Of a stretch of DNA of 40,095 nucleotides, positions 1 to 32,651 are shown one piece after another. The position numbers and the translations under genes were made by a program. Under the pieces are notes generated by a model, which saw only the letters and a program-made list of their open reading frames with translations, ran no database searches and was not told the origin of the DNA. How positions within the stretch are numbered: position 1 is the stretch's first letter; every line of letters starts with the position of its first letter. Source of the stretch: a virus; IMG/VR virus record IMGVR_UViG_3300038701_001365, positions 1-40,095 of that record; one strand, written 5' to 3'.

Positions 1-197
1 TGTGTCAAATTAGCGTCTGTTAAATTAGCGTCTGATAAAATAGCATATCTTAAATCAGCATATCTTAAATCAGCGCCTGTTAAATTAGCACCTTTTAAAT
101 TAACATGTGTCAAATTAGCGTCTGTTAGATTAGCGTGTCTTAAACTATTGAACTCCTTCTCACTACCATCTTTAAACTTTATCTTATATTTACTCAT
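1..197 (-). CDS. Pentapeptide-repeat protein, 5' part (gene is split by the window ends and continues at 40002..39699)
   Basis: ATG at 197-195 overlaps the stop of ORF 194..391 (ATGA). Hand translation [66 protein letters not shown] stays open to base 1. It is in frame with ORF 39699..40010 once the 93-bp end duplication is collapsed (197+304=501 nt, 166 aa). Confidence 0.8.
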   Translation of the reverse strand, partial: MSKYKIKFKDGSEKEFNSLRHANLTDANLTHVNLKGANLTGADLRYADLRYAILSDANLTDANLT

Positions 198-391
198 ATA
201 GTCCCTTCTAATTTTATATCCGCTAATAATTCGTCTAGTTCACTTTCTAAATAAGCCCTATTGTTAAAAATATAAGCTTCTTCAAAATGCGTGTTTGACT
301 CTCCACAACATCCTATCTTATCTGTACTAACTTCTTCCATACAATACGGACAAACTAATTCTTTATCTAGGTTATCTATGTATTTATCCAT
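194..391 (-). CDS. Small Cys-rich (CxxC...CC, zinc-ribbon-like) hypothetical protein
   Basis: ORF track. Tightly packed with neighbours, with 1-4 nt overlaps. Motif CPYC...CCGE. Confidence 0.6.
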   Translation of the reverse strand: MDKYIDNLDKELVCPYCMEEVSTDKIGCCGESNTHFEEAYIFNNRAYLESELDELLADIKLEGTI

Positions 392-392
392 T

Positions 393-611
393 TTAAAACT
401 CCTCTGATACTAAATCGTGTAAATAGTTATAAGTTCTAGTGCTAAGTAAATATCCAGCCTGGTGTTTACCATTTATAGATAGGCAGAAGATATCTAGCTG
501 ACCGTCTTTAAGGTCATACCCGCCTTCAACTAACTGTCCGCCTATTGTAGTACTAAATGTACCGTAAACTTCAGTATTATCTAACTCTTTTTCTAATTCT
601 ATTTTTCTCAT
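393..611 (-). CDS. Hypothetical early protein
   Basis: ORF track. SD AAGGGAG lies 6 nt upstream of the ATG. First gene behind sigma54-type promoter P1. Confidence 0.65.
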   Translation of the reverse strand: MRKIELEKELDNTEVYGTFSTTIGGQLVEGGYDLKDGQLDIFCLSINGKHQAGYLLSTRTYNYLHDLVSEEF

Positions 612-619
612 GTTAACTC

Positions 620-725
620 CCTTTATATATACTATATAGCAAGCTTGATGCCAACTATAGAGCCCTTTAAAGCCCTCTAGAGCATAAAAAAGTGTCTAAC
701 TTATTAAAATTGTATACTATTTAAA
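620..725 (-). repeat. About 105-bp promoter module (copy 1), homologous to 4425..4530 and more loosely to 2098..2200
   Basis: Near-identical blocks: TATAGCAA..TGCCAACTATAGAGCCCTTTAAAG..CT.TAGAGCATA...AGTGTCTAACTT...TTGTATACTATTTA. Confidence 0.8.
638..654 (-). promoter_or_regulatory. sigma54-type -24/-12 promoter P1 (TTGGCAT-caagc-TTGCT), leftward
   Basis: The minus strand reads TTGGCATCAAGCTTGCT with GG-N10-GC spacing. The GC lies about 28 nt upstream of the ATG at 611. Confidence 0.7.
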
Positions 726-749
726 CACTTTCCTTTTGTTATAAGTTTA

Positions 750-758
750 TGTTATACT
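750..758 (+). promoter_or_regulatory. Extended -10 promoter (TGtTATACT) for a probably leaderless mRNA of ORF 765..1211
   Basis: TGTTATACT ends 7 nt before the A of ATG 765. There is no SD between them. Confidence 0.4.
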
Positions 759-764
759 ATCTAT

Positions 765-1211
765 ATGAAATTGTTATTAAACTTCGATAAAATACAACCT
801 ATGTCCATAAATAAGGCTTACTACAAAACTAGAAAGGTTCTAACTCAAGCCGCTAGAGACTATAGGAAGTCTATATGGGAGCAGATGGAACCCCATAGAC
901 AAGAAATAGACGAGTTTAAATCTAATTTTGATAAGTTTAAACATAGTTTGTCACTTAAAGTCTATGTTGGAGTACCTTCTAGTAGATTTTATACACAGCA
1001 AGGGTATATCAGTCTACACAGCTCAGATATCGACAATATAGCTAAACTTTTAATAGACAATACGGTAGACCCTAAATTTAGAGCTGAGAAATATGCTGCC
1101 CCAACTTTAGATATCGATGATAAATTTATAACCGCTCTATTTTTAAGTAAATACGCCTCTCCTGAAGAGCATTGGCATATCGAAATGGAGTTCGAGATCA
1201 TAGATTTATAA
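765..1211 (+). CDS. RusA-like Holliday-junction resolvase (putative)
   Basis: Motifs PMSINKAYY...SDIDNIAKLLIDN...DIDDKFI resemble the RusA catalytic Asp signature (DxDNxxKxxxD...DD). It is the only + strand gene inside the leftward early block. Confidence 0.5.
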   Translation: MKLLLNFDKIQPMSINKAYYKTRKVLTQAARDYRKSIWEQMEPHRQEIDEFKSNFDKFKHSLSLKVYVGVPSSRFYTQQGYISLHSSDIDNIAKLLIDNTVDPKFRAEKYAAPTLDIDDKFITALFLSKYASPEEHWHIEMEFEIIDL

Positions 1212-1316
1212 AAATAGAGCTAATAAGAAAGCTATGATTAAAGCCGTTGATAAAGCCCCTGTTAGAATCCCTGTTATAATAGTCATGAGTATAACCACAT
1301 CTTTTAAGCTTAGCAT
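1206..1316 (-). CDS. 36-aa single-pass membrane peptide
   Basis: Not in the ORF track (under 60 aa). Perfect SD AAAGGAGG lies 5 nt before ATG 1316. Translation MLSLKDVVILMTIITGILTGALSTALIIAFLLALFL. Confidence 0.5.
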   Translation of the reverse strand: MLSLKDVVILMTIITGILTGALSTALIIAFLLALFL

Positions 1317-1333
1317 GTTGCCTCCTTTTATAA

Positions 1334-1804
1334 TTATTTAAACACTGATTTAATTTTACCTTCTTTAAATAGCTCAAAAGACTCTTCTATACATCTAGAG
1401 AGCCCTAGATTTTCTACGCATCGGGTAGAGTCGGTAGTATATATACCCATTAATTTTCCGCGACTATTTACTGTAGATTCTATGTGATCAAACCCGAAGT
1501 AGCAGTGAAGCATTTCGTGGGCTAGTAAGGCCGTTTTAGCACTATCCGAGGCGCTTTCCCAAAACTTCTTTCTTATTTTTATAAGAACACCTCTTTTATT
1601 CGAGATCCGGCAGATACCGTTCTTAGAGGTAGCTTCTAAGTCATTATTAATTTCGACATTTATAAAAAGGTCCTCTAGACTTAGGCCTAGTTCACTAGCC
1701 ACCTCTATTTCGTAGGTGGTTATATCTGTACGTACTTTGTTTAAAGAGTTGTCGCAAGATGTACTATAAATTGTTATTATACATAATAATATATTTTTAA
1801 TCAT
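1334..1804 (-). CDS. Secreted or lipoprotein zinc metallopeptidase (HExxH)
   Basis: N-terminal signal sequence ending ..IYSTSC (lipobox-like). Motif AHEMLHCYFGFDH. Confidence 0.5.
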   Translation of the reverse strand: MIKNILLCIITIYSTSCDNSLNKVRTDITTYEIEVASELGLSLEDLFINVEINNDLEATSKNGICRISNKRGVLIKIRKKFWESASDSAKTALLAHEMLHCYFGFDHIESTVNSRGKLMGIYTTDSTRCVENLGLSRCIEESFELFKEGKIKSVFK

Positions 1805-1806
1805 TT

Positions 1807-2073
1807 CTATGCCCCTACTTTATTTCTGTATTCCATAAAGTCGATAACATCGCAGTCTGACTCCTCTTCAATGTAGAAGAAAATCTTATTGTACCCGTCT
1901 TTGTAGAACTTCGCTAAACACTGATCTACTTCGTACCACATGTCCTCAACATTTACTAAGTGATGTATCCCGCGCTCATCGTTTTGCCCAAACTCCTTAT
2001 TCTCCAGTATCTCATATTCTTTGAAGTTATAAAATTCTTCTAAAATATCTTGTAATCTCTCTTTGTTTGTCAT
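1807..2073 (-). CDS. Hypothetical acidic early protein
   Basis: ORF track. SD GAGGAG upstream. First gene behind sigma54-type promoter P2. Confidence 0.6.
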   Translation of the reverse strand: MTNKERLQDILEEFYNFKEYEILENKEFGQNDERGIHHLVNVEDMWYEVDQCLAKFYKDGYNKIFFYIEEESDCDVIDFMEYRNKVGA

Positions 2074-2112
2074 CCTAAACTCCTCTTGTTAGTTAGTTTA
2101 TATACAATATGT

Positions 2113-2128
2113 AGCAACATTGATGCCA
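2113..2128 (-). promoter_or_regulatory. sigma54-type -24/-12 promoter P2 (TGGCAT-caatg-TTGCT), leftward
   Basis: The minus strand reads GGTGGCATCAATGTTGCTAC with exact GG-N10-GC spacing. It lies about 40 nt upstream of ATG 2073. Confidence 0.7.
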
Positions 2129-2195
2129 CCTATAACCCTATTTAAACCCTAATATAGCTTTAATAAGTGTATATATTGTCCACAATGTACACTAT

Positions 2196-2417
2196 TTATT
2201 CACTATCTTTAAATGTAAAATTAGGCTCGCTTTTTTTAATATTGCTGACAATCTTATTTAATTTTTTAAACGCCGTCTCTAAATCTTTCCTAGAACTATT
2301 TGTATCAAGATGGTAGTAATAACCTTTAAACTTGTCTTTATACCTCTCTTCTACAAAGAGTTGTAAATTTACTATCTTTTTAATTATGGATAACCTGTTG
2401 CTTGAGTATAGTTTAAT
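2196..2417 (-). CDS. Hypothetical protein from a 73-codon stop-free ORF with no ATG/GTG/TTG (candidate AUU start)
   Basis: Hand translation IKLYSSNRLSIIKKIVNLQLFVEERYKDKFKGYYYHLDTNSSRKDLETAFKKLNKIVSNIKKSEPNFTFKDSE. AGGAGG lies 6 nt upstream of ATT 2417. Confidence 0.4.
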   Translation of the reverse strand: MKLYSSNRLSIIKKIVNLQLFVEERYKDKFKGYYYHLDTNSSRKDLETAFKKLNKIVSNIKKSEPNFTFKDSE

Positions 2418-2418
2418 T

Positions 2419-2619
2419 TCAAACCTCCTTGTTGTTCAATGCTTTTTCAATAATTTTTTGAATCTTCATAGCTTCTTTATAAGTCGCCTCATCGCCATTA
2501 TGTCTAATTTGTATGTGGAGACCTCTGGAATTATTGACGTTTTTAGTTTTTGAAAAAACACTAATGCCCAAACATTTTTGCTGGATATCTATGCCGTCTG
2601 TATTTTTGTATGCTTTCAT
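2419..2619 (-). CDS. Hypothetical early protein
   Basis: ORF track. Sits in an operon context. Confidence 0.55.
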   Translation of the reverse strand: MKAYKNTDGIDIQQKCLGISVFSKTKNVNNSRGLHIQIRHNGDEATYKEAMKIQKIIEKALNNKEV

Positions 2620-2648
2620 TTTAATATTCTCCTATTGGTTTAGTTGGT

Positions 2649-2927
2649 TTAAGCTTCTCTCTCTTCTCTGATGTCCCACGAACCCATCCAGATTAAAAAA
2701 CTAATAAGTTCCTCTCTGGTTGAATCTTCAGTGTAAGACTCAGCTCCAGTGGACTCTACAGCCTCAAGAAGTTTCGATGTTTCAATCTTGCTGAACTGTT
2801 CAGTGTATTCACTCAAACAGTCTTCAACGTATGAGTCGCAAGCGCCTTGCTGAGCCATATAATCAACGTCATCAGCGTTTATGTAGAACTCGCCTAAGCT
2901 CTCTATGTAAAAATATTGTTTGCTCAC
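2649..2927 (-). CDS. Hypothetical acidic early protein
   Basis: ORF track. Adjacent to 2929..3144. Confidence 0.6.
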   Translation of the reverse strand: MSKQYFYIESLGEFYINADDVDYMAQQGACDSYVEDCLSEYTEQFSKIETSKLLEAVESTGAESYTEDSTREELISFLIWMGSWDIREEREA

Positions 2928-2928
2928 T

Positions 2929-3144
2929 TTATACCGCCTTCTTAATGTTATATTCTGGTGACTCGATCACTCTACCTACAACCTCAACTATAGAAGTTTT
3001 AAGTAAATCTATGACCTGTCTTAACTGATACTCTCTTATTTCATTCACTGAACCAGGGTTGTTAGTTAGGTTTGAGAGCTCTGTCCTAGCCCTCTCTAAA
3101 CCTTGTGTTAACTCTATTATTTCATTTAATTGTGATTGTCTCAT
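2929..3144 (-). CDS. Hypothetical early protein (coiled-coil-like)
   Basis: ORF track. Abuts its neighbours. Confidence 0.6.
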   Translation of the reverse strand: MRQSQLNEIIELTQGLERARTELSNLTNNPGSVNEIREYQLRQVIDLLKTSIVEVVGRVIESPEYNIKKAV

Positions 3145-3378
3145 TTATATCTCCTTTTTAAGAGGTTTGAAGTATGTAGCCGTTTTCCCACAAATAGGGT
3201 CAAATTTAGTTCTCATACACATAAAATCTGCTGCCTCTAAAAACATCTGTATATTCATCATTTCTGATGTTTCAAACCCTGATGTCCATACTACCCACGT
3301 ATCATTATCTACTCTATCATAATGATCCATATTATTTGACATTCTCTCTAAACCTATTCTTTGTTTTTTAGTTAACAT
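3145..3378 (-). CDS. Hypothetical early protein (77 aa; start trimmed from 3465)
   Basis: ATG 3378 is preceded by AAGGAGA. The longer ORF-track start would run through promoter P3. Confidence 0.6.
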   Translation of the reverse strand: MLTKKQRIGLERMSNNMDHYDRVDNDTWVVWTSGFETSEMMNIQMFLEAADFMCMRTKFDPICGKTATYFKPLKKEI

Positions 3379-3412
3379 TCTTATTCTCCTTGTTAATTTA
3401 TACACACTATAT

Positions 3413-3428
3413 AGCAAAAGCGGTGCCA
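3413..3428 (-). promoter_or_regulatory. sigma54-type -24/-12 promoter P3 (TGGCAC-cgctt-TTGCT), leftward
   Basis: The minus strand reads GTTGGCACCGCTTTTGCTATATAG, about 35 nt upstream of ATG 3378. Confidence 0.7.
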
Positions 3429-3694
3429 ACTTGTACTGCCCACACATTAGAGTACAGCGATACAAAACTGTATATACATTGTGTAAACTGTTGCGGTATT
3501 CAATTAGTGTAATGATTTCAATACCTTATGTGTGTGTATATCTTTTTACCACTGTATAACCTATAAACACTTACTATTTTTGGTATGTTTTACTATCATT
3601 GTAACATAATAATACACCATATTTCCCGTTTTTAAACAATGTAACATAATATTGCGTACATAAGTTATCGATATAACAGGGGAAAAAATAAAGC

Positions 3695-3724
3695 TTGACA
3701 CGCTTATATTTGACTTGATATATT
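3695..3724 (+). promoter_or_regulatory. sigma70 promoter of structured RNA A (TTGACA-N18-TATATT)
   Basis: The hexamers are conserved with the RNA B promoter while the spacer sequence differs. An A-rich UP-like tract lies upstream. Confidence 0.65.
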
Positions 3725-3730
3725 AATTAG

Positions 3731-3835
3731 TGTTCCCCTTAATTAGAGCCCGCTTACATTATGACAATTAATAGGCCTTACGGCCATCCTAGTGAACACA
3801 TTGAGCAGCGGGTACACTGTGGCACAATATGTACA
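3731..3835 (+). ncRNA. Structured RNA family, copy A
   Basis: Outer stem CCCGCT(3749-3754)/AGCGGG(3807-3812). Hairpin GGCC-TTAC-GGCC (3774-3785). Conserved TAGTGAACACATTG and a GTGGCAC tail (3819-3825). The ends are approximate. Confidence 0.6.
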
Positions 3836-3924
3836 CAAATTACACCAATATATGATATTATACTCTAACTAATAACAATTATCAGTTAACTATTAAGTAA
3901 ACTAAACAAATAAAGTTTATACCC

Positions 3925-3953
3925 TTGACAAGCTTTTTAGTACCTGCTATATT
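3925..3953 (+). promoter_or_regulatory. sigma70 promoter of structured RNA B (TTGACA-N17-TATATT)
   Basis: Consensus -35, 17-nt spacer, and a 5/6 match at -10. It is followed by the same AATTAGTG start region as copy A. Confidence 0.7.
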
Positions 3954-3959
3954 AATTAG

Positions 3960-4060
3960 TGCTATCCCTTAAATAGAGCCAGCCTACATTATGTCACTTC
4001 GTAGGCCTTACGGCCACTGTAATGAACACCTTATGCGGCTGGTACTTAGTGACACTTAAT
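3960..4060 (+). ncRNA. Structured RNA family, copy B
   Basis: Outer stem CCAGCC(3979-3984)/GGCTGG(4037-4042), with two compensatory pair changes relative to A. Hairpin 4004-4015. GTGACAC tail 4049-4055. Confidence 0.6.
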
Positions 4061-4061
4061 A

Positions 4062-4145
4062 CCCACATACAAATTGACAATTAATAGGCCTTACGGCCAT
4101 CCTAGAGCACACTAGTGCTGTGGGCCACATAGTGACACAATATGT
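4062..4145 (+). ncRNA. Structured RNA family, copy C (no promoter of its own; probably co-transcribed with B)
   Basis: Outer stem CCCACA(4062-4067)/TGTGGG(4119-4124). Bases 4075-4104 are identical to 3763-3792 of copy A. Hairpin 4087-4098. GTGACAC tail 4132-4138. Confidence 0.5.
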
Positions 4146-4167
4146 CTTAATTTATGGGTTAACATAT

Positions 4168-4416
4168 TTATTCCCCCCACTGTACTTCTAATATTCTGTC
4201 ACCTTCGAAACAAATCTCTTGAACGTCCTTAAGTTCCATATAACTTTGGTTAACTCTGTACATGTTGTGAAGCATTATGCTTAAGGCAACACTGTTTAGG
4301 TTTTGAACTATCCAATCATAACCAACTAATATGGTATCGTTTTCAGTAGCCACTACGTACTCTCTATACTCGGGTCTTTTCACTTCATTTTGCTTGTTAT
4401 TAGTATCTCTAGTCAT
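4168..4416 (-). CDS. Hypothetical early protein
   Basis: ORF track. SD AAGGAGA upstream. Single gene behind promoter P4. Confidence 0.6.
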   Translation of the reverse strand: MTRDTNNKQNEVKRPEYREYVVATENDTILVGYDWIVQNLNSVALSIMLHNMYRVNQSYMELKDVQEICFEGDRILEVQWGE

Positions 4417-4424
4417 ATTATCTC

Positions 4425-4530
4425 CTTAGTTATATACTATATAGCAACATCAGTGCCAACTATAGAGCCCTTTAAAGTCCCTTAGAGCATAGAATAGTGT
4501 CTAACTTTTATCCTTTGTATACTATTTAGT
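4425..4530 (-). repeat. About 105-bp promoter module (copy 2), homologous to 620..725
   Basis: See 620..725. It includes TTGTATACTATTTA (4515-4528), at the same 65-bp distance from the -24 GG as in P1 and P2. Confidence 0.8.
4443..4458 (-). promoter_or_regulatory. sigma54-type -24/-12 promoter P4 (TGGCAC-tgatg-TTGCT), leftward
   Basis: The minus strand reads GTTGGCACTGATGTTGCTATATAG, about 30 nt upstream of ATG 4416. Confidence 0.7.
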
Positions 4531-4997
4531 CAATATATACTAGAAGTTGTCATTTTTGTATTTTATTGACAATATATGTCCGTGTATCAATTTGAGGCTA
4601 CCTGAGAGCCTTGTCACGCTCTTTAAATACAATCTATAACATAATACCCTAACTAATACTAAATCTACTGTATGGGCCTTCTATGGCTTCATCTTAATAA
4701 GCGTAAACATTAGTTGTTTAGCTAATTAGATTTAAACCATGGTAGCTCTTCTAAGCCCTTTTATTCAAATAGTATACAAATACCTTATGGTAGACATTAA
4801 ACGCCTCTATGAGGCTTATATGAACTTATTCGGGCTAAATAGTACTGGACCTAATTAGTGACTCAATGTAGAACGTCTAAATAATAGTCAATATCAACTA
4901 TCTAATAGTCTCAAATATGCCGGACATCTATTATGCTTTAATTATGCTGATCCCTTAAAGATAAGATTATTATGGAACTACATTGCTTTAGGGGGAG

Positions 4998-5013
4998 CGC
5001 AATCTCCATGCCA
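4998..5013 (-). promoter_or_regulatory. sigma54-type -24/-12 promoter P5 (TGGCAT-ggaga-TTGCG), leftward into ORF-free DNA
   Basis: The minus strand reads GTTGGCATGGAGATTGCGCT. It shares the AGTACAAGTTGGCA context with P3. I found no ORF longer than 10 codons with an SD in the 430 nt downstream. Confidence 0.55.
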
Positions 5014-5111
5014 ACTTGTACTAACCTGCGCTGAGGGTTCAATGAAGCATAAAGATGCTGGACTACTACTTGACATCCACTTAATATTGTGTTATGTGGC
5101 CTATTATTATG

Positions 5112-5127
5112 TGGTACATTTCTTGCA
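5112..5127 (+). promoter_or_regulatory. sigma54-type promoter P6 (TGGTAC-atttc-TTGCA), rightward
   Basis: Exact GG-N10-GC spacing. First of three sites spaced 38-39 bp apart. Confidence 0.55.
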
Positions 5128-5150
5128 ATAGAGTATTCCCCCTAAATACA

Positions 5151-5166
5151 TGGCATAATTCTTGCA
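5151..5166 (+). promoter_or_regulatory. sigma54-type promoter P7 (TGGCAT-aattc-TTGCA), rightward
   Basis: Exact GG-N10-GC spacing. Confidence 0.6.
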
Positions 5167-5188
5167 ACTAACTAAACCTCCTTGAGGT

Positions 5189-5204
5189 TGGCATATATCT
5201 TGCA
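5189..5204 (+). promoter_or_regulatory. sigma54-type promoter P8 (TGGCAT-atatc-TTGCA), rightward
   Basis: Exact GG-N10-GC spacing. Confidence 0.6.
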
Positions 5205-5304
5205 TAGAAGATGCTCAGTTCGAATCTATCCCATTCTGAGACACATATGCAGCGTATCATATTGAGACATGCCCCTTCAAAATTAGGCCCCCCCTAGGTA
5301 GAGG

Positions 5305-5320
5305 TGGCACGCAAATTGCA
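5305..5320 (+). promoter_or_regulatory. sigma54-type promoter P9 (TGGCACG-caaa-TTGCA; textbook consensus), rightward
   Basis: TGGCACGCAAATTGCA matches the YTGGCACGrNNNTTGCW consensus at every specified position. Confidence 0.65.
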
Positions 5321-5609
5321 GAGAGAGCGGTAGGAGTCCCCCTTTGCTATAACACAAAAAATAAGGCCCCCACACTAAGTGCCACAAGGTGTTTTCGGGT
5401 AAAAAGTGGCGGAATTATGACCATTTTTTGGCGGAAAAATGTGACGCCTTTTAGCTGACGAACTACAAATTATCCAATAATTATGGTATGTTACAAGTTT
5501 AGCTTTTTTAGGTTTTAGTGGAGTTCGTCACAAGATGTTGCGCTGACGAACTTTAGGTTAAATACCGCAAGGTGTAAGTAGCTGTAATCATTAGATTATA
5601 AGAATTCTA

Positions 5610-5637
5610 TTGACTATATATAAAAATATGTTATGAT
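5610..5637 (+). promoter_or_regulatory. sigma70 promoter (TTGACT-N16-TATGAT) of the packaging operon
   Basis: Hexamers read directly from the sequence. About 90 nt upstream of the first ORF. Confidence 0.5.
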
Positions 5638-5639
5638 TA

Positions 5640-5715
5640 ACAAACCACCTACTTAACTTAAGTTGGTTCGTCATAAATTGGTCGCCGACTAAAAGTAGGG
5701 CTGTAGGTGGTTTGT
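5640..5715 (+). promoter_or_regulatory. 13-bp perfect inverted repeat (ACAAACCACCTAC ... GTAGGTGGTTTGT) forming a leader stem-loop
   Basis: 5640-5652 pairs with 5703-5715. The 50-nt loop contains one iteron. It sits between the sigma70 promoter and the SD GAGGAG (5726-5731). Confidence 0.6.
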
Positions 5716-5735
5716 ATTGACACTTGAGGAGAAGC

Positions 5736-6176
5736 GTGACGAAGAAACTGACGAACATTAATGTAAGAGGTATGCTGACGAAGATTTACCTACAATCAGT
5801 TAAAAGTTACGATAAAGGCGCTCCTGACGAATCTACGGCCTATATAGAATGGGAAAAGCGTTCAATATATTTTAATGTATCAGATATTAGTAAAGAGACT
5901 ATTCGTCACGAATTGACCCATGCCTATATTAAGGCGAGCTTCACGGAGCAGATCCCAGATCTAACCCTAGAGCAATTAGAAGAGATATTCTGTGAAGTGG
6001 TCTCCCATTTTGGGACTACTATTATAAAACAAGCTGATAGCATCCATAAGGAAATGTTATCCCTTATTAAGGAGGATAAATTTGGGAACAGTAAAGACAA
6101 AGAAAGAAAGTCTACAAAAAGCGTCTATGGCGAAATTGAACAAGAACGTGAAGAAGCTGATTTTAGATCAGAATGA
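5736..6176 (+). CDS. Small HExxH protein (putative metallopeptidase-like)
   Basis: ORF track 5724..6176. GTG 5736 follows GAGGAG at 4 nt; ATG 5772 is an alternative start. Motif IRHELTHAY. Confidence 0.4.
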   Translation: MTKKLTNINVRGMLTKIYLQSVKSYDKGAPDESTAYIEWEKRSIYFNVSDISKETIRHELTHAYIKASFTEQIPDLTLEQLEEIFCEVVSHFGTTIIKQADSIHKEMLSLIKEDKFGNSKDKERKSTKSVYGEIEQEREEADFRSE

Positions 6177-6997: not shown

Positions 6998-7661
6998 CCT
7001 CTCATCCCTACGCAGAATTTCTGTAGCAACTCTAGTAGGACTTATAATATTTTCAGCTACACCATTGGCGTTAAGCCCTGATGCAGATTCGTTTAAGCCG
7101 GGGTTAGTAAAAAAAATAGCACCCTACACACTACCTTTAGTGTACCCAGACGGAAATAAATTCTGCTCAAGTTCTGCCGTACAATTCCTAGATAAGGTGT
7201 ATACGGTAACAAATAACCATTGTTGTGAAGTAGATTCGTTTATAGGTGACTTGAGATTAGTAGGAGATACTATACAAAATATATTGTACCAAAGCCCTGA
7301 CCATGATCTATGTATACTTACATCTAAATTTAAAACATCTCCTATTACATTAGCTACAGATGACGCAGAGGTTCTAGACGAGGTCCTATTAATGGGATAC
7401 CCTAGAGGAGAGGCCCTCACTCCAAGATTCGGGCACGTCCTAGTAAAAGATATGCGGCTACATATAGCGGGGTATAGTTACGTGTCCCATGTCATATCTA
7501 CTGTCACCTACGCAGGTAATTCGGGCTCCCCCCTGTTTAATACGGAAGGCGAGATAGTAGGCGTCCTATATGCAGGTAACCTAGTATTACACACTTACGG
7601 CATAATGGTTCCCCATAGATACTTATTAAAAGCATTAATGGAAGCGCGTATCAGTGAGTAA
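6969..7661 (+). CDS. Trypsin-like (S1) serine protease with N-terminal signal/TM segment
   Basis: Catalytic-triad contexts TNNHC, DHDLCIL and GNSGSPLF. Hydrophobic N-terminus ...LVGLIIFSATPLALS. Confidence 0.7.
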   Translation: MYQKTLLRHSLSSLRRISVATLVGLIIFSATPLALSPDADSFKPGLVKKIAPYTLPLVYPDGNKFCSSSAVQFLDKVYTVTNNHCCEVDSFIGDLRLVGDTIQNILYQSPDHDLCILTSKFKTSPITLATDDAEVLDEVLLMGYPRGEALTPRFGHVLVKDMRLHIAGYSYVSHVISTVTYAGNSGSPLFNTEGEIVGVLYAGNLVLHTYGIMVPHRYLLKALMEARISE

Positions 7662-9078
7662 TCTCAGAGAACAGATTTTACAGGACTTAAACAAACCCCG
7701 AGGGGACGGTTTAAAAATCGGTCTCAAACAAGCTTTACACGAAAAGCAGCTAGAGCTTTTAACACCTATCCTACGTGATAAAAAGAAAATAACCTTCGGT
7801 GCATGTGGACGTAAGTTCGGTAAGTCTAGGGCTACTTGTTATTTAGCATGGAGGTGGGCTTTATTAAATCCAAACTCTTCTGTATATATAGTGTGTCCCG
7901 AAGGTACTCATGGTAGACGTATCTACTGGAAAGATGCGCGTATATATCAATTCTTAGGGGTAGATTCTAAGAAGTATATACTAGGTAAACCTAACAGCAG
8001 GGAATTAACAATAAATTTTAAGAATGGTTCTAACATACAGATAATGGGTTCCGATAACTATATGGCAGCCAACGGTTTAACGCCCGATCTAGTTATATAT
8101 GATGAGTTTAAAGGGTTCCACCCAGAATTCCACACACAAATGGACCCGAATAGGGCCGCTAAAGCTGCGCCTTTATTAATAATAGGTACACTAGCCGAGG
8201 ACGGTATAAGAAATAAAGATGAATATTACGCGCTATTAGAAGATTGTGAAGAACACCCAGAAGATACTCCAGTATTTAAATACGGTACGTTCGATAATCC
8301 TATTAATCAATTACCAGGACAAAAAGAGGCTATCTTGAAACAGATAGAACTACTTAGAAGACAAGGTAAAGAGCACGTAGTTCAAAGAGAGTATTTCTCC
8401 AAGATTATACCAGGAGGAGAAACTGCAATCTTTCCCTACTTTAACCCAGATGAGCACGTATTCCCTCACGAAGAGTTAGTACAAGAAATAAATAAAGATG
8501 TCAACAATCTTGAGTGGTGCGTATCTATTGACCCAGGGAATAGGACAGTATTTGCAAGTGTTATGGCAGCGCATGACCCAGAGAACTCTGTACTATACGT
8601 ATTAGATGAGAATTATGCTAGAACACAGTCAGAAACATTAATATCAAAATTTATGGCAGCTTTAAGAGGTAAGATGCTGTCTCTATACCCTTCTGGGGAT
8701 CTCGATAGAGGTTGGGCTAAGGTATGTGATGAGCAGGCAGCATGGGCTATTCTGGAGACTCTAGGACAGTTTAATGACATGGCCTTTATGAAGTCTAATA
8801 AAAATGCTAACAAAAAAGATTATGGTATTACACTACTAAATGAAGCAATGCAGAAGGGACTCATAAAAATAAGTGATAGATGCACTAATTTAATTAAAGA
8901 GATCACAGATTACCACATGAATAAACAAGGTAGAATACCTAAAGTTAATGACCATGGTATAGACGCATTAAGATATCTTATACACCATATAAATTATACT
9001 ATTGTACCCGATATTGATTATAAAGAAAAAAGGGACTATAGGGACGATAATAGTAGTATTTGGGGGGACTTCTTTTAA
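7654..9078 (+). CDS. terL: Terminase large subunit
   Basis: Walker A-like GACGRKFGKS, Walker B LVIYDEF, and C-terminal nuclease Asp motifs (SIDPG, HGIDALRY). Size and position fit. Confidence 0.85.
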   Translation: MSNLREQILQDLNKPRGDGLKIGLKQALHEKQLELLTPILRDKKKITFGACGRKFGKSRATCYLAWRWALLNPNSSVYIVCPEGTHGRRIYWKDARIYQFLGVDSKKYILGKPNSRELTINFKNGSNIQIMGSDNYMAANGLTPDLVIYDEFKGFHPEFHTQMDPNRAAKAAPLLIIGTLAEDGIRNKDEYYALLEDCEEHPEDTPVFKYGTFDNPINQLPGQKEAILKQIELLRRQGKEHVVQREYFSKIIPGGETAIFPYFNPDEHVFPHEELVQEINKDVNNLEWCVSIDPGNRTVFASVMAAHDPENSVLYVLDENYARTQSETLISKFMAALRGKMLSLYPSGDLDRGWAKVCDEQAAWAILETLGQFNDMAFMKSNKNANKKDYGITLLNEAMQKGLIKISDRCTNLIKEITDYHMNKQGRIPKVNDHGIDALRYLIHHINYTIVPDIDYKEKRDYRDDNSSIWGDFF

Positions 9079-9104
9079 TGGATTTATCCTTTAATATTAA
9101 TACA

Positions 9105-9204
9105 CACAAAGTGCCACTTAATGGCCGCACGTACAATGTGTTCACTATGAGGGGCGTAAGCCCCTTTAATTGCCACGAAGGGTGCGGTACTTTAAGGCTC
9201 TTAT
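9105..9204 (-). ncRNA. Structured RNA family, copy D (minus strand, antisense to the terL 3' flank)
   Basis: The minus strand reads ...AAGAGCC..CCGCAC..GGGGC-TTAC-GCCCC..TAGTGAACACATTG..GTGCGG..GTGGCAC. Stems at 9182-9187/9125-9130 and hairpin 9151-9164 covary with A-C. Confidence 0.55.
9149..9170 (+). terminator. Possible terL terminator (the same hairpin read on the + strand: GGGGC-GTAA-GCCCC then TTTAATT)
   Basis: A 6-bp GC-rich stem with a GNRA-type loop, 70 nt after the terL stop. The U-tract is weak. Confidence 0.35.
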
Positions 9205-9210
9205 TAACAC

Positions 9211-9238
9211 TATATAGGGGTAAATATATTCGTGTCAA
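9211..9238 (-). promoter_or_regulatory. sigma70 promoter of structured RNA D (TTGACA-N16-TATATA)
   Basis: The minus strand reads TTGACAcgaatatatttaccccTATATAgtg. The -35 plus CG context is shared with the RNA A promoter. Confidence 0.55.
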
Positions 9239-9301
9239 GTAATTTCTATTTTTTTACCTGTTTTGCCTATTTTATTACGCCAAACCGTAATATTTGTTAC
9301 A

Positions 9302-9329
9302 TTGACAATATAGGTATATCTGGTATAAT
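9302..9329 (+). promoter_or_regulatory. Consensus sigma70 promoter with extended -10 (TTGACA-N16-TGgTATAAT) for the portal/capsid operon
   Basis: Read directly from the sequence. 30 nt upstream of ATG 9360, which has SD GGGAGG. Confidence 0.7.
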
Positions 9330-9359
9330 AAAAAGTTATACAACATATAGGGAGGTATT

Positions 9360-9608
9360 ATGGTGTTAAGTCTTAGCATATGTGCATTAATATTTAGTGT
9401 AATAGCATTAGTGTTTAGTGTTTACAATTTAATTCAATTAGAGGCTCAAAAAAGAAGTACTCACAGTATAGAGTATGTAGGAGCTAATCCAGGCGATTTA
9501 GATATAGAGAGTACTTTAGCAGATTTTAACAAAAAAACAGAAAAAGAGTTAGAAGAGACTTTACCCTTTTTCAATAACGAAGATACAAAAAAAGTGAGGT
9601 CATTCTAA
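9360..9608 (+). CDS. Small membrane protein
   Basis: ORF track. N-terminal TM segment LSICALIFSVIALVFSVY. Strong SD. Confidence 0.6.
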   Translation: MVLSLSICALIFSVIALVFSVYNLIQLEAQKRSTHSIEYVGANPGDLDIESTLADFNKKTEKELEETLPFFNNEDTKKVRSF

Positions 9609-11651
9609 ATGAGTATACACGATAGCGAATTTAATAGTAGTTCATTCTTTGCTGTCCCTAAAAAGGATAGAGAAGCTTGGCTACAGAGAACAATAGAGAC
9701 TCTTATAGAGGAGTCCCAAGCCCGTACACAAAATCAAAGAAATAACTTGATGGGTTACCTAGGGGTAGAAACAGATACAGTAAGGGATATCACTAGAAGA
9801 GAAGATAGAAATTATAGAAATGGTAGAAGGGCTTCTAAATTTAAGATTAACCATCTATTTGACGTAGTAGAGACTAAGGTCTCTCAAATGACCCGACTTA
9901 AATCTAACGTAGAGGTAAAGCCTACTCACCCAGACTGGGGGGATAGAGGCGCAGCAGAAGTTTCTAAACATGTAATTAGAAATATATTTGATCAACAAAA
10001 CTTTGACGCTAAAGCTATAGATATAGTAAGACAGACAGAAATTACTGGAGAATCTTATCTTTTTGTAGAGTGGGATAAAGATTGTGGTGACCTACATCCT
10101 TCTTACGTAGAGGCTAAAAACGCAGGACTAGACTCTGTACCAGGCCCAGACGGTAAACCTATCAGCTTAAAAAAGCCTATCTACTTAGGAGACGTTAAGC
10201 ATACAGTAGAATTTCCGTGGAGAATTTTTCTACAGAGAAAAGAAAAGTTTGAAGATTGCGACTACGTATTTAGAATCCATATCATGGAAAGAGATAAGGT
10301 CGAGTCTAACTTCCCTAAATACGAAGGTAAACTAGCAGAATCTTCTGGAATAACTATATGGGACGTCAACATGTTAGAAGAACAGTATATGGAAAACCAT
10401 GTAGCTGTTTACGAATTCTTCCATAGAAGAACTAAAGAGATGCCCAATGGTTATCACGCAATGTTTTGTGATGCGGGTATCTTAATGGAACAAGACCTAC
10501 CTTACGAGCATGGTAAACTTCCTATGGTTAGATTAACCGATATTGATTTACCAGGATATATCAATGGTTTAGCTAAGTTCACATCGGCACTACAAATTCA
10601 AAATAGATATGACGACTTAAATACATTAATTTTAAAAAACATCTACTTCCTAGCTCACCCTAAGTACGCTGTACCTAAAAATGCAGTAGACATTAGACAG
10701 TTAGGTAATGATAATACCGTTGTAGAATGGGTAGGAGCACCTCCTACAGTACTACAGGCCCAAGCAAATAGTTCAGAGGTGTATAAGTATGGTCCTGAGA
10801 TTATTAGGTCTATGGAACGTATTATGGGTAATCACGGTATCTCTAGAGGAGAAATGCCTAACGGTATAAGTGCCGCAAGTGCTTTAAGACTGTTAAATGA
10901 AATGGAATCTATTAGAGCTACCTCAGCTATATCTAAATACGCTCAGTTCGTAAAGGATGTGGCTAGATTGACTTTATCTACAGCAGGTCAATACTACTTA
11001 CCATCTGACGGTAGACTAGTTAAGATCGTAGGAGAAGATAACGCTGCTAGTATTAGGTTCTTTGATGCAGCAGACCTTAACAAGCCTTACGACGTACAGT
11101 TTGAAAACTCTACAGGATTCCCTGATACACAAGCAGCTCAAAAACAAGAGATTATAGATGTATTACAGTATGCTGGGGACGCAGCACCTTTAGGCAGATT
11201 GTTAGATGCTCTAGACATAGCTAACGCAGATAATTATAACGACTACTTAACGGCAGCAGTAAAAGCTTCTGATAGTGAGAACCAAGACTTACAGGCAGGT
11301 AGACCAGTAGCACCTCCTGAGATGCATCAAGACCTTATAACTAAATGGGAATCTAGGTTCCACTTATTACAATCTAGAGCATTTAATGAAGAATCTACAC
11401 AAGAGGTATATAATGCCGTAATGCTTAATGTTAAGCAGGTAGAGGAACTTATGATAGCTAAAATGGCTAAAAGCCCTATATTCCAAGCAGAAGTAGCTAG
11501 ATTAGTTCATTTCCCATTAATGGACCACTCCGGCTATACGCCCCCTCAGTCTAGACAACAAACAGAGGCTATAGTACAAGGAGAGGCAAATAGAGGTGAA
11601 CCGGTTACGGACATGATACCAGCAGAACCTAAGAAAATTGGAGAAAAATAA
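9609..11651 (+). CDS. Portal protein
   Basis: 680 aa. Follows terL and precedes the scaffold and capsid genes. Confidence 0.75.
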   Translation: MSIHDSEFNSSSFFAVPKKDREAWLQRTIETLIEESQARTQNQRNNLMGYLGVETDTVRDITRREDRNYRNGRRASKFKINHLFDVVETKVSQMTRLKSNVEVKPTHPDWGDRGAAEVSKHVIRNIFDQQNFDAKAIDIVRQTEITGESYLFVEWDKDCGDLHPSYVEAKNAGLDSVPGPDGKPISLKKPIYLGDVKHTVEFPWRIFLQRKEKFEDCDYVFRIHIMERDKVESNFPKYEGKLAESSGITIWDVNMLEEQYMENHVAVYEFFHRRTKEMPNGYHAMFCDAGILMEQDLPYEHGKLPMVRLTDIDLPGYINGLAKFTSALQIQNRYDDLNTLILKNIYFLAHPKYAVPKNAVDIRQLGNDNTVVEWVGAPPTVLQAQANSSEVYKYGPEIIRSMERIMGNHGISRGEMPNGISAASALRLLNEMESIRATSAISKYAQFVKDVARLTLSTAGQYYLPSDGRLVKIVGEDNAASIRFFDAADLNKPYDVQFENSTGFPDTQAAQKQEIIDVLQYAGDAAPLGRLLDALDIANADNYNDYLTAAVKASDSENQDLQAGRPVAPPEMHQDLITKWESRFHLLQSRAFNEESTQEVYNAVMLNVKQVEELMIAKMAKSPIFQAEVARLVHFPLMDHSGYTPPQSRQQTEAIVQGEANRGEPVTDMIPAEPKKIGEK

Positions 11652-12939: not shown

Positions 12940-14181
12940 ATGGCACAGTGGGTATATAACACACAATCAGAAGTAAATTTAATGAAAATCGTATACGACA
13001 AGTATATCGATAAACAATTCAACAAATCTTGTCCTTTACTAGGATTAGTAAAAAAAGACAGTAGACCTTTTGAAGGACTACAAGTAGAAATGGCTGTTCA
13101 ATTATCAGTCGGTGGCGGTAGAACATCCGGCTCACTAGGTACAACTAACCCTTCAAAAACTGCTAAGGTTATCTTAACTACTAAGAAAATCTACGGTAGA
13201 GTTGAAGTAGACAATGAGTCTATGAAGGCGTCTAGAAAATCTATAGAAGCTTTCGCTAAGTTCACAAAAGAGCCTATCGATCGTGGTACTGATGGGGTTA
13301 ACTTAAACCTTGAAAGACAAATGATTGCTAACGATCTAGCTGGTTCTGGACTTTTGTTCACATCAACTACTGACTTAGTAACAGGTGATGGTACTACAGC
13401 TACTCCATACGTAGTTACTCTAGAAGCTTTAGCTATAGATGACGCTGTAGAGATCGGTGATTACATCTCTGCTGAAGGCGAGGCTACTATACTTGAAGTT
13501 GTAGATATTGATGATAGCGGTGCTAACACTACTTTAGAATTAGTAGGTACATCTGCTGCTGTAGCTGCTGCTGTTTCTACTGGCGCTGCAATCGGATTCT
13601 ACATGGAAAAATCTGAAGATAACGAACTTTCTGGACTTGCAGGGCTTTTACTAGCTACATCAGGTACTTATAAGAACGTCGATATCTCTAGAAGATGGCG
13701 AGCTTCACAAACTGACGCGGGTACTGACCCAATCTCTGTTTCTCTTTTGAACCAGAATATCATGACTATCAAGAAAAGATCAGGTAAAGCACCTAAATCT
13801 ATTCATATGCCTTATGAGCAGTATGTTAACTTCCTTAACTTACTAGAGTCTGCTAAGACGTACAACGTTCCGACTAGAGACAAAGCTTATAAAGGACAAA
13901 TCTCATTCTCAGCTATTGAGTACATGGGACCTGCTGGCCCTATCCCTGTTTTCTTAAACAGATTCATTAGAGCTGACCGTGTTTATGTTCTTAACGAAGA
14001 TCACATCCAACTTAGAAGTCGTGGACCTCTTTCTTGGGATGATCATAACGGAATGGTTTTTGATAGACTACAAGACAGTGATGCTTATGAGGCTAGATGT
14101 ACTTTCTACTGTGACTTCTTCGCGAATCCACACTTCCAAGGTATAATCTACAATCTATCTACTGCTTTGGTAGCTAGCTAA
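12940..14181 (+). CDS. Major capsid protein
   Basis: 413 aa. Strong SD (TAGGAG). Canonical position. Followed by a terminator. Confidence 0.7.
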   Translation: MAQWVYNTQSEVNLMKIVYDKYIDKQFNKSCPLLGLVKKDSRPFEGLQVEMAVQLSVGGGRTSGSLGTTNPSKTAKVILTTKKIYGRVEVDNESMKASRKSIEAFAKFTKEPIDRGTDGVNLNLERQMIANDLAGSGLLFTSTTDLVTGDGTTATPYVVTLEALAIDDAVEIGDYISAEGEATILEVVDIDDSGANTTLELVGTSAAVAAAVSTGAAIGFYMEKSEDNELSGLAGLLLATSGTYKNVDISRRWRASQTDAGTDPISVSLLNQNIMTIKKRSGKAPKSIHMPYEQYVNFLNLLESAKTYNVPTRDKAYKGQISFSAIEYMGPAGPIPVFLNRFIRADRVYVLNEDHIQLRSRGPLSWDDHNGMVFDRLQDSDAYEARCTFYCDFFANPHFQGIIYNLSTALVAS

Positions 14182-26661: not shown

Positions 26662-26976
26662 TTATTTACCCAACTCTTTTGACCTATTATTAGCCTGTTG
26701 CTTCCAATCTTCCCACCTACAGTTACCTGGCTCATAGTTGCCATTGTTATCTATTCTATCTAGCTCTAGACCGTCTCTGTAAAACTCTCCCATATCTTCC
26801 CAGAACCCTACAAAATCTAGCCAATCATCGCAAACAGTTATACCGCGGCCACCATATAATTTATAATTAGTATTATTTTTATTAAGGCACCTCATTTTCA
26901 TGCAAGTCCATATTTTATAAGGCCGTGTACGCGACATACCGTGCCTCATATTTTTAGTTAAAATCGGGATTTCCAT
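26662..26976 (-). CDS. HNH-like homing-endonuclease-family protein (paralog 2, short form)
   Basis: YKIW..MK.RC....YGGRGITVCDDW..F..F..DMG....LDRIDNNGNYEPGNCRW. SD GGAGGA before ATG 26976. Confidence 0.65.
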   Translation of the reverse strand: MEIPILTKNMRHGMSRTRPYKIWTCMKMRCLNKNNTNYKLYGGRGITVCDDWLDFVGFWEDMGEFYRDGLELDRIDNNGNYEPGNCRWEDWKQQANNRSKELGK

Positions 26977-27433
26977 GTTTATCCTCCAGGTAGGCTAACA
27001 TAGCTACATTGGCAGCTATATGGTCTAAGTGACGTAGTCCAGACTCACTATCAAACTCCTCTCCTGAAATAATTGCAAAGGTATGTCTTAGTAGAGCTGC
27101 ATATACTCTCTTCAAGTCTTCTTTTTTAAAACCTTTATAACCATTTCTAGTGTACTTACATGCGCCAAATCCTAGAGCCCTTGCTATAGCATTGACGGCT
27201 AACGGATGTACAAGAGATAAATCAGGTTTACCTTCATCAAACTTAGTAGCACCGACCTCTTCTGGTCCGACAGGGCGTAAATCGACCGCATAGAAATAAT
27301 AATTGTCATCAAAAGAGCTACTAGCTACTTCATAATAGTAATTCCCTACTGGGCTAGGCCTTCTACCTACCACACTTGTTACCTCTCCCGTAGACTTTAT
27401 AACTACTCTATCCCCTATTTCAAACTTGACCAT
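26954..27433 (-). CDS. dATP/dGTP pyrophosphohydrolase-like (DUF5664/MazZ-like) protein with an extra N-terminal small beta domain
   Basis: KFDEGKPDLSL....A.ALGFGACKY......RHTFAIISGEEFDSESGLRHLDHIAANVAMLAYL fits the family signature (K.D.GK...L....GA.KY....RH....GE..D.ESG..H..H...N). Confidence 0.6.
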   Translation of the reverse strand: MVKFEIGDRVVIKSTGEVTSVVGRRPSPVGNYYYEVASSSFDDNYYFYAVDLRPVGPEEVGATKFDEGKPDLSLVHPLAVNAIARALGFGACKYTRNGYKGFKKEDLKRVYAALLRHTFAIISGEEFDSESGLRHLDHIAANVAMLAYLEDKHGNPDFN

Positions 27434-27691
27434 CTATTCTCCTTTTATTAATTTAACTTCTAATTTATACCATAAAATAACTAAACAAAACACACAGTTT
27501 ATACCATAATTGAATAGTAGTGGCCATGCAAATTGGTCTTGTAATATATAAATGAGTGTACATATTTCTCCTGTAGTCCACATTAAGATAAAACCCCAAG
27601 AAATACCTCTAGAGTGCTTATCATTAAAAGATTTATAAGCTTGGGGTATAGAACAGAAGGCTAGTAATAAACTACCTAGCCACCCCAACAC
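27434..27691 (-). CDS. PQ-loop (SemiSWEET-like) 3-TM membrane protein
   Basis: 85 aa. LLLAFCSIPQAYKSF PQ motif in TM1, followed by two more TM segments. GTG start. Confidence 0.5.
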   Translation of the reverse strand: MLGWLGSLLLAFCSIPQAYKSFNDKHSRGISWGFILMWTTGEICTLIYILQDQFAWPLLFNYGINCVFCLVILWYKLEVKLIKGE

Positions 27692-27852
27692 TATTCACCT
27701 ACCTTATAGCAATTAGCCTCTCTCACTCTATCCTCTATTCTTAAAGAATCTGCTATACCTCTACATATTTTCATGGACTGTATATTCCCTATAATTTCTA
27801 CGTTACCGCGTTCGGGCGTACTAGTGACAAGTACTATTATTAAATAAATCAT
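27691..27852 (-). CDS. 53-aa protein with hydrophobic N-terminus (lysis-cassette accessory?)
   Basis: Not in the ORF track. ATG 27852 directly abuts the endolysin stop. Its own stop overlaps the GTG start of the PQ-loop gene by 1 nt. Confidence 0.35.
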   Translation of the reverse strand: MIYLIIVLVTSTPERGNVEIIGNIQSMKICRGIADSLRIEDRVREANCYKVGE

Positions 27853-28733: not shown

Positions 28734-28735
28734 AA

Positions 28736-29861: not shown

Positions 29862-29863
29862 CG

Positions 29864-30061: not shown

Positions 30062-30083
30062 ATTTAAAAAAATTTTGCATTAT

Positions 30084-32642: not shown

Positions 32643-32651
32643 AATATCCCT

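Follow-up and report, generated by a model that had tools for sequence, protein, structure and literature searches.

Four paralogous candidate small RNAs with compensated stems face sigma54-type operons in an uncultured phage

Four RNA units in a 40-kb phage contig

The window analysed here, the whole 40,095-nt stretch of IMG/VR record IMGVR_UViG_3300038701_001365, is a complete or near-complete contig of an uncultured, podovirus-like tailed phage. It contains four paralogous units, A to D, that share a compact predicted fold and, judged from their sequences, are probably genuine structured RNAs. Units A, B and C lie in a gap between leftward early genes (3465–4168) and unit D in the gap between the rightward TerL and portal genes. 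The units, their outer stem (P1), capped hairpin (P2) and tail are listed below, with the scores given by a covariance model.

3731–3832 (+): unit A, 108.9 bits; 5′ end placed from the position of the −10 element; leader contains CCCUUAAUUAGAG
3749–3754/3807–3812 (+): P1 of A, CCCGCU/AGCGGG
3774–3785 (+): P2 of A, GGCC-UUAC-GGCC
3790–3803 (+): possible third stem (P3) of A
3819–3825 (+): tail of A, GUGGCAC
3960–4061 (+): unit B, 99.1 bits; abuts unit C directly
3979–3984/4037–4042 (+): P1 of B, CCAGCC/GGCUGG
4004–4015 (+): P2 of B
4049–4055 (+): tail of B, GUGACAC
4062–4145 (+): unit C, promoter-less; begins where the tail of B stops
4062–4067/4119–4124 (+): P1 of C, CCCACA/UGUGGG, with CCA after it
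4087–4098 (+): P2 of C
4132–4138 (+): tail of C, GUGACAC
9203–9100 (−): unit D, 86.9 bits; ends ∼30 nt from the TerL stop codon (9078)
9187–9182/9130–9125 (−): P1 of D, CCGCAC/GUGCGG
9164–9151 (−): P2 of D, GGGGC-UUAC-GCCCC
9125–9113 (−): tail hairpin of D, GCCAU-UAA-GUGGC, terminator-like in a terminator scan; overlaps GUGGCAC at 9117–9111

All four units have the same architecture of a 6-bp P1, a UUAC-capped GC hairpin P2, two conserved unpaired segments (..UG-CAAUUAAUA.. and ..UAGUGAACACAUUG...) and a GUGRCAC tail; this arrangement and the always-pairing outer stems are present just where the original prediction, made from the letters of the window, had placed them. The unpaired segments are identical across paralogues 5 kb apart whose stems differ: A and D agree exactly in UAGUGAACACAUUG, and A and C in TGACAATTAATAGG. 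After P1, units C and D have CCA, where A and B have UAC.

Units A, B and C were found independently by a repeat finder, which grouped them into one 90-nt family (78% and 66% identity), and the hairpin GGCCTTACGGCC, allowing up to two mismatches, has eight matches in the window against 1.14 expected, a number reached by none of 100 shuffles. The units are GC-rich islands (45%) inside a gap of ∼25% GC. In an independent Logan assembly of this phage the sequence of D is identical, and the contig breaks inside C (69.6 bits, cut at the contig end), which is a typical effect of repeats; the copies are thus not an assembly artefact. The units had been described as tandem copies, which holds strictly for B and C only. 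Copy D is real, although it is inverted, lies 5 kb off and has a promoter of its own, its minus strand orientation and promoter having gone unmentioned in the earlier description. The gap holding A–C had also been called free of open reading frames (ORFs); it has three of 40–46 amino acids, albeit probably spurious ones.

Covariation and folding

The four paralogues were compared in a single alignment (A6), in which one N was added to D just past the 5′ strand of P1; MAFFT had misplaced the 1-nt length difference of D. P1 is paired in 24 of 24 cells, and both sides have changed in four of its six pairs. P2 likewise pairs throughout and has a single double change, in D (GGCC/GGCC to GGGC/GCCC), and P1 and P2 of all four units consist of Watson-Crick pairs only. 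None of 500 column shuffles matched the observed covariation, and sliding the 3′ partners by one to three columns lowered the pairing from 97% to 29–48%. The stems drift by compensatory change and the loops stay fixed. The claim of compensatory covariation thus stands for P1 and for one change in P2, although four paralogues cannot give significance of the R-scape type. A third local hairpin, UAGUG-AACA-CAUUG, is possible and shows zero double changes. An alternative 'rod' fold (GUG/CAC with AUUA/UAGU) was considered and set aside; its support is no better than that of the local P3, and neither has a double change.

A legal start codon (ATG, ATG, TTG and GTG) stands in the same alignment column of all four units and opens ORFs of 35, 22, 13 and 30 codons, so that the units could be read as small peptide genes. 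We find this reading hardly credible and reject it. No Shine-Dalgarno sequence precedes any of these starts, whereas the phage genes have strong GGAGG-type sites, and the stop codons are scattered over four different places. The compensated change in P2 would be non-conservative in the peptide (RPYGH to GAYAP), and the 5′ strand of P1 lies outside the ORF and yet covaries with the 3′ strand.

Promoters and orientation of the units

Candidate sigma70 promoters were scored as matches out of 12 hexamer positions. Only six sites in the whole window score at least 11/12, and they include the following four.

3695–3724 (+): promoter PA, TTGACA-N18-TATATT with extended −10 TG, 11/12; the −10 ends 24 nt before P1 of A
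3925–3953 (+): promoter PB, TTGACA-N17-TATATT with extended −10 TG, 11/12
9238–9209 (−): promoter PD, TTGACA-N18-TATAGT, 11/12; 21 nt upstream of the outer stem of D
9302–9329 (+): portal-operon promoter, TTGACA-N16-TATAAT with TG, 12/12; back-to-back with PD and divergent from it

PA, PB and PD are of near-consensus sigma70 type and would be read by the host RNA polymerase. The distance from promoter to P1 is fixed at 21–25 nt in three of the four units (A, B and D), and the promoter scan found no promoter-like site upstream of C. The two plus strand promoters of the original prediction were thus recovered, as were the homologous copies following them and the lack of a promoter for C.

The genes and sigma54-type promoters around the units are arranged as follows.

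1–4461 (−): small leftward genes
5724–26624 (rightward): structural genes
7654–9078 (rightward): TerL, stop codon at 9078
9609–11651 (rightward): portal
12940–14181 (rightward): major capsid protein
26662–39150 (leftward): replication genes PolA, primase-helicase and exonuclease, a T7-like module
3413–3428 (−): sigma54-consensus promoter, TGGCAC-N5-TTGCT, divergent from PA
4443–4458 (−): sigma54-consensus promoter of the 82-amino acid gene (4416–4168), whose transcript would run head-on into C, B and A
638–653 and 2113–2128 (−): further leftward sigma54-consensus matches
5151–5166, 5189–5204 and 5305–5320 (+): rightward sigma54-consensus matches upstream of the terminase operon

The consensus TGGCAY-N5-TTGCW has seven exact matches in the window against ∼0.1 expected, and the four leftward ones stand before early genes within a conserved 35-nt block. 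There are 76 matches in 813 kb of related loci, where ∼5 would be expected; in these relatives (L027–L110) they cluster on both strands in the region where early and late genes diverge, for the most part ∼3.2 kb before the TerL stop, and a run of C often comes after them. The sigma54-type feature is thus lineage-wide, and a lytic-type phage relying on sigma54 promoters would be unusual.

A 1.1-kb stretch at 4461–5590 between the early and late genes has no ORF longer than 39 amino acids and contains the three rightward sigma54-type promoters. It carries C-rich motifs (GGCCCCCCC, GTCCCCC and GGCCCCCAC), with similar C-run motifs at the equivalent regions of L027, L044 and L046, and Rfam gave no match within it.

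Each unit sits between two co-directional operons, in the opposite orientation and divergent from the promoter of the next operon. Units A–C run against the leftward transcript starting at 4458 and D against the rightward terminase operon. The A–C locus and the D locus point towards each other, with the divergent sigma54-type promoter region between them. The original prediction was therefore right that the units oppose the flanking genes, specifically the sigma54-type early operons.

The position of the tandem promoters bears on a suggestion that the transcripts serve as origin or primer RNAs, analogous to the primary origin of phage T7, with transcription into an AT-rich tract at 3836–3920 opening the duplex or priming the replisome. 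The two tandem promoters, the AT-rich stretch after A and the T7-like replication module all fit this suggestion, but we regard it as very improbable. The tract, which had been singled out as specially AT-rich, is unexceptional at 22–24% GC against ∼25% for the gap around it, and the cumulative GC-skew minimum lies at 5.0–5.4 kb and tracks gene orientation. A better iteron-type candidate exists at the contig ends, and the fold, unit C and unit D would be left unexplained. The candidate at the ends is a 15-bp tandem repeat, TGTTAAATTAGCRYM, of which ∼21 copies with a 45-bp super-period occupy 3–144 and 39923–40095; it is either a candidate iteron-like origin or the genome terminus, and the circular assembly was probably cut there.

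Relatives of the units

Among 50,697 deposited phage genomes, even the most similar TerL is only 26% identical, and a large protein collection contains hundreds of TerL and primase relatives, several of them on 40–44-kb metagenomic contigs. The phage is thus a member of a large uncultured lineage. We refer to its relatives by labels from L027 to L113 and give their closeness as TerL identity.

Covariance model R1, run on ∼0.9 Mb of related loci, detected a unit in L030, and that only marginally (19.6 bits, E = 0.026); with no model match past L030, homology there rests on position, leader motif and hairpin type. L030 (TerL 84%) is the closest relative with data, and its unit is an ortholog of D, with a 12/12 leftward promoter in the TerL-portal gap. 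It keeps the AGAGC leader and has a differing yet pairing outer stem (GCUAG/CUAGU) followed by CCA, a hairpin AGGCC-UAC-GGCCU and a tail GGCCACUUUGUGGCAC in which GGCCAnnnnGUGGCAC is kept; another hairpin, capped by UUAC, comes next. The loop sequences of this unit are not those of D.

More distant relatives (TerL 44–61%) also have a leftward sigma70 promoter and a short structured RNA in the TerL-portal slot. In L029 (TerL 61%) the promoter is accompanied by a 10-bp outer stem and a GGGGU/ACCCC hairpin, and in L045–47 (TerL 44–46%) by a long outer stem and a UGCC-UAAC-GGCA hairpin. Loops of the UNAC type (UUAC or UAAC) are present on the promoter-driven strand in the window, L030 and L045–47. 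Both L044 and L045 have a rightward unit 2.7–2.9 kb upstream of TerL, before the terminase operon, which has the promoter-leader TATATT-AATTA-TCCCTTAATTA in common with A and B as well as the same kind of hairpin. The TerL-portal slot of L068 closes with a leftward intrinsic terminator, and L111 (TerL 73%) has no TerL-portal gap. Orthologs of the A–C gap were sought through the adjoining 82-amino acid protein, which gave a self-match only.

The hairpin AGCC-UAAC-GGCU occurs identically in three related phages, after the capsid gene in L032 (11913), in a 5′ untranslated region in L038 (1974, −) and within the rightward unit of L045 (438). GC hairpins with a UNAC cap may be a signal that recurs across the lineage.

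Antisense transcription as an alternative

The topology of these loci makes a live rival of the proposal, raised in the original prediction, that the units control sigma54 transcripts by antisense pairing or collision, although we think it unlikely to be the right explanation. The units would then act in cis as antisense or insulator elements similar to lambda oop: strong sigma70 transcription would run head-on into the end of the upstream operon and block read-through into the next co-directional operon, the antisense RNA would pair with the read-through transcript, and the fold would serve RNA stability or fast pairing. Unit D would in this way oppose the operon read from the sigma54-type promoters at 5151–5305. 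Such a role agrees with the placement of the units between co-directional operons, divergent from the promoters at 3428 (A) and 9302 (D), and with the inward-facing loci around the divergent sigma54-type promoter region. It also draws support from the relatives. A homologous unit in L045 and L046 is antisense and lies just downstream of leftward sigma54-consensus promoters, and in at least nine relatives, also those with a different RNA sequence, a leftward promoter converges on the TerL stop. This supports running against the flow of the flanking genes as a conserved feature, and it is the main argument for an antisense or insulator role.

L111 has a 660-nt ORF-free gap between co-directional early genes at 1390–2051 (−), analogous to that of the window at 3465–4168. 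It contains the sigma54-type promoter of the downstream gene and, divergent from it on the opposite strand, a sigma70 promoter (TTGCAT-N17-TATAAT with TG). The topology is the same, and what follows this promoter is ∼280 nt of GC-richer, non-coding, unrelated and apparently unstructured sequence (z = +1.1) with no Rfam match, which fits a role for antisense transcription itself.

The oop RNA of lambda (and sar of P22) is likewise a short RNA from a constitutive sigma70 promoter that opposes the flanking operon and converges with the 3′ end of the upstream gene. However, oop is single-copy, overlaps its target gene and has an intrinsic terminator, whereas here four paralogues share loops and the fold stops short: the folded part of D ends 30–80 nt before the TerL stop codon in both the window and L030. 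Antisense transcription has no need for identical loops 5 kb apart, such as the exact UAGUGAACACAUUG of A and D, and leaves the compensatory upkeep of P1 unexplained. The unit of L044, moreover, points the same way as the late genes that it precedes.

Antitermination as an alternative

Units A and B and the unit of L044 make it attractive to regard the family as processive antitermination sites of the nut or put type, loading an N-like protein or Nus factors onto the polymerase, which would then cross the untranslated region 4461–5724 into the terminase operon. The units have a CCCUUAA/GCCUUAA leader that may resemble boxA and a GC hairpin that would correspond to boxB, with a GNRA-mimicking UNAC loop; they begin 5–18 nt past the predicted transcription start and lack a terminator of their own; the L044/L046 unit stands in a 1-kb ORF-free region before the rightward late genes and is co-directional with them in L044. 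Tandem promoters with such a leader recall rrn P1/P2. The lambdoid nut sites (boxA and boxB) and HK022 put are also promoter-proximal, occur in more than one copy per genome, are phage-specific in sequence and have a small GC hairpin with a GNRA-like loop. UMAC/UNAC loops fold like GNRA, and the phi21 boxB loop, CUAACC, contains UAAC and binds the N peptide (PMC12550061).

This reading conflicts with the orientation of D, and we consider it quite improbable. D and the D-type units of all relatives point antisense to TerL, a direction that offers nothing to antiterminate, and no plus strand terminator is predicted between 4145 and 5724. No arginine-rich N-like protein adjoins any unit, the boxA resemblance is a short AT-rich match, and nut sites lack the enclosing covarying helix that the units have.

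Elements of the opposite strand or of the DNA

The Watson-Crick pairs of P1 and P2 can form on either strand, and the elements could instead function at the DNA level or on the other strand, as terminators or 3′-end stabilisers of the mRNAs of the 82-amino acid gene and TerL, or as sites for a protein recognising GTGnCAC. Read in that direction each unit would be a 4–5-bp GC stem capped by GUAA, a GNRA loop, and then a run rich in U and A (GGCCGUAAGGCC-UAUUAAUU; GGGGCGUAAGCCCC-UUUAAUUG for D), with the CAAUUAAUA segment becoming a U-rich tract right after the hairpin in A, C and D. The units are exactly where operon-end terminators would be expected, and GTG-N-CAC is palindromic.

Nevertheless, this alternative appears improbable. 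The hairpin stem of A–C is just 4 bp, and with an intrinsic terminator defined as a GC-rich stem of ≥5 bp that has a T run after it, no such site passes on either strand in 3600–4500; the sole pass among the units is the tail hairpin of D (9125–9113, −). Unit B has no U-rich tract, and neither the 6-bp P1 enclosing 52 nt nor the second conserved loop is explained. Three near-consensus promoters at a fixed spacing would have to be a coincidence, yet they recur in relatives, and a dimeric DNA-binding protein would reject differing half-sites in one genome. The few G-U pairs, in the D tail hairpin, P1 of L030 and the outer stem of L045, form on the promoter-driven strand only; comparison of the tail hairpins of D (GCCAU/GUGGC) and L030 (GCCAC/GUGGC) gives a U-G pair kept solely on that strand. 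Read from the promoter-driven strand, the UUAC and UAAC loops both conform to UNAC; the GUUA of the opposite strand does not conform to GNRA.

Comparison with known RNA families

Searching the whole window with the 4227 covariance models of Rfam 15 gave nothing at gathering level. At E ≤ 5, with 3400–5750 and 8950–9450 searched, there were chance matches only, far under threshold: a miRNA, SraB (15 bits, 130 required) and c-di-GMP-I (14 bits, 35 required). ARAGORN found no tRNA or transfer-messenger RNA (tmRNA) genes. A tRNA-like cloverleaf was tried and rejected; its D-arm-like helix (columns 10–12/18–20) pairs in one of the four copies, and the loops are of 4 nt, not 7. The fold was therefore rightly described as unrecognised, and of the searches that had been suggested along with it, Rfam gave no known family and the covariance-model search of relatives gave L030 as a marginal match only.

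Blastn of 3400–4450 against 50,697 phage records gave no match, and an exact-pattern scan for the hairpin plus L2 gave none in IMG/VR and JGI metagenome contigs; a 15-mer pattern had chance matches only. When TAGGCCTTACGGCCAYYNTAR was compared with 596 Gb of sequence from 185,579 reference genomes, one isolated 20-nt chance match and no CRISPR arrays were found, a comparison that is incomplete as long as the host is not known.

Tandem, promoter-driven arrays of structured RNA repeats are also known from ToxI and RNA anti-CRISPRs, and a high early dose would suit a decoy, which the original prediction had named, with anti-defence, as a possible role. Here, though, the units are spaced by 83 and 230 nt, not 34–45 nt, the copies are 66–78% alike and the hairpin stem varies. 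No toxin gene follows, unlike in a type III toxin-antitoxin system; the plus strand ORFs after the units are just 21–32 amino acids long. The earlier conclusion that these are neither ToxI-type nor CRISPR repeats is in agreement with these data.

Other features of the genome

A protein encoded at 26954–27433 (−) has a dATP/dGTP diphosphohydrolase N-terminal domain (PF18909, E = 6e-23), and a second copy of this type of domain adjoins the primase in L113; it may act in nucleotide-pool manipulation or DNA base modification. The leftward replication region contains a 232-nt direct repeat with 75% identity (32154–32385 and 34464–34695) and a third copy of 80 nt (26683–26762), which may be duplicated gene starts or regulatory blocks. 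Within the leftward early region, a 148-amino acid ORF runs rightward at 765–1211 (+) and has weak RusA-like and helix-turn-helix matches below the Pfam thresholds; L113 has a 148-amino acid gene that is likewise in the opposite orientation.

Discussion

The core of the original prediction is upheld: the features of the window are those of a novel structured RNA with compensatory stems and sigma70-type promoters, directed against the flanking genes. The family of small RNAs is new; the general kind is familiar, the phage lineage unfamiliar and the transcriptional setting unusual.

As to function, we tentatively favour, while giving it somewhat less than an even chance, the idea that the units encode trans-acting sibling small RNAs with one shared partner. 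Four paralogous genes would give rise, through the host RNA polymerase, to a small structured non-coding RNA of ∼80–100 nt, whose fold would offer a surface for binding made up of the loops, the UNAC hairpin and the tail. The RNAs would act in trans on a common partner, either a protein, by sequestration or in a ribonucleoprotein, or a host RNA, and having several copies would raise the dose straight after infection. Unit C would be freed from a B–C precursor by processing, possibly through RNase P-type cleavage at the base of P1, given the CCA found after this helix in C, in D and in the L030 unit.

A trans-acting model is favoured because the loops are identical 5 kb apart where the stems differ, and because the loops differ in L030. 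This combination of identity within the genome and divergence in a relative with 84% TerL identity suggests a shared, fast-evolving partner rather than collision alone, the partner probably co-evolving quickly. The UNAC loop, by analogy, suggests contact with a protein or a tertiary contact; UNAC tetraloops fold in the GNRA-like manner seen in ribosomes and in the phi21 boxB–N complex (PMC12550061).

Sibling, or multicopy, small RNAs of bacteria include Qrr1–5, LhrC1–5, PrrF1/2 and RsmX/Y/Z. Like them, the phage units form paralogous copies in one genome, some in tandem with their own promoters, and combine conserved unpaired segments with compensated stems, and the proposed mode, trans action on a shared partner, is also alike. 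They differ in being encoded by a lytic-type phage, in the lack of a Rho-independent terminator or poly-U tail in A–C, and in having neither GGA loops nor an obvious seed-target match; the promoter-less C, furthermore, would need processing. Another parallel is provided by P1/P7 C4 and satellite P4 CI, phage regulatory RNAs of ∼77–79 nt with a terminal helix and internal hairpins that are excised from longer transcripts. These are substrates of bacterial RNase P, which cuts hairpin-like phage RNAs such as C4, CI and phi80 M3 (PMC5499578), and the CCA after the terminal helix of C, D and the L030 unit is comparable. In contrast to C4 and CI, our units have no Rfam match at E ≤ 5 and no complementary phage target, A and B have UAC at this position, and temperate immunity is not involved.

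Several observations weigh against trans-acting sibling RNAs or against the fold on which they depend. Single-sequence folding is ordinary (z = −0.8, −0.8, −2.8 and −1.1), and the covariation comes from four paralogues of one genome and one ortholog, with model R1 recovering no member past L030. In L111 the corresponding promoter reads into unrelated sequence. The conserved loops have no convincing complementary target in the phage genome by motif searches, and duplex scans of both genome strands with L1, L2 and the tail gave scattered intragenic matches only, none at ribosome-binding sites. Nor was a partner protein found: Pfam and PHROGs searches of 30 phage proteins identified no RNA-binding protein, sigma factor, RNA polymerase or enhancer-binding protein, and an arginine-rich-motif scan gave no candidate adjoining any unit. 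Finally, A, B and C lack an intrinsic terminator (3600–4500 scanned, both strands).

A further possibility, which we consider quite doubtful, is that the RNAs regulate the sigma54-based programme by binding the sigma54 holoenzyme, an enhancer-binding protein or sigma54 transcripts, and so would time a switch between host sigma70 and sigma54 transcription. It is raised by the tail of the D and A type, GUGGCAC, which includes the −24 element TGGCAC, and by the inward-facing units flanking the sigma54 cluster. We know of no description of an RNA doing for sigma54 what 6S RNA does for sigma70. To our knowledge, phage small RNAs with strong early promoters of their own are few, and most of those characterised are from temperate coliphages.

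What we describe here is an RNA in several copies whose fold is clear and compensated; it recurs in two conserved genomic slots within a large lineage of uncultured 40-kb phages and is opposed to sigma54-type operons. Its four natural variants, with different stems and identical loops, constitute a ready compensatory-mutation series. Binding of a host or phage factor by the RNAs, if it occurs, would reveal either a novel device for takeover or anti-defence or a further layer of phage transcription timing.

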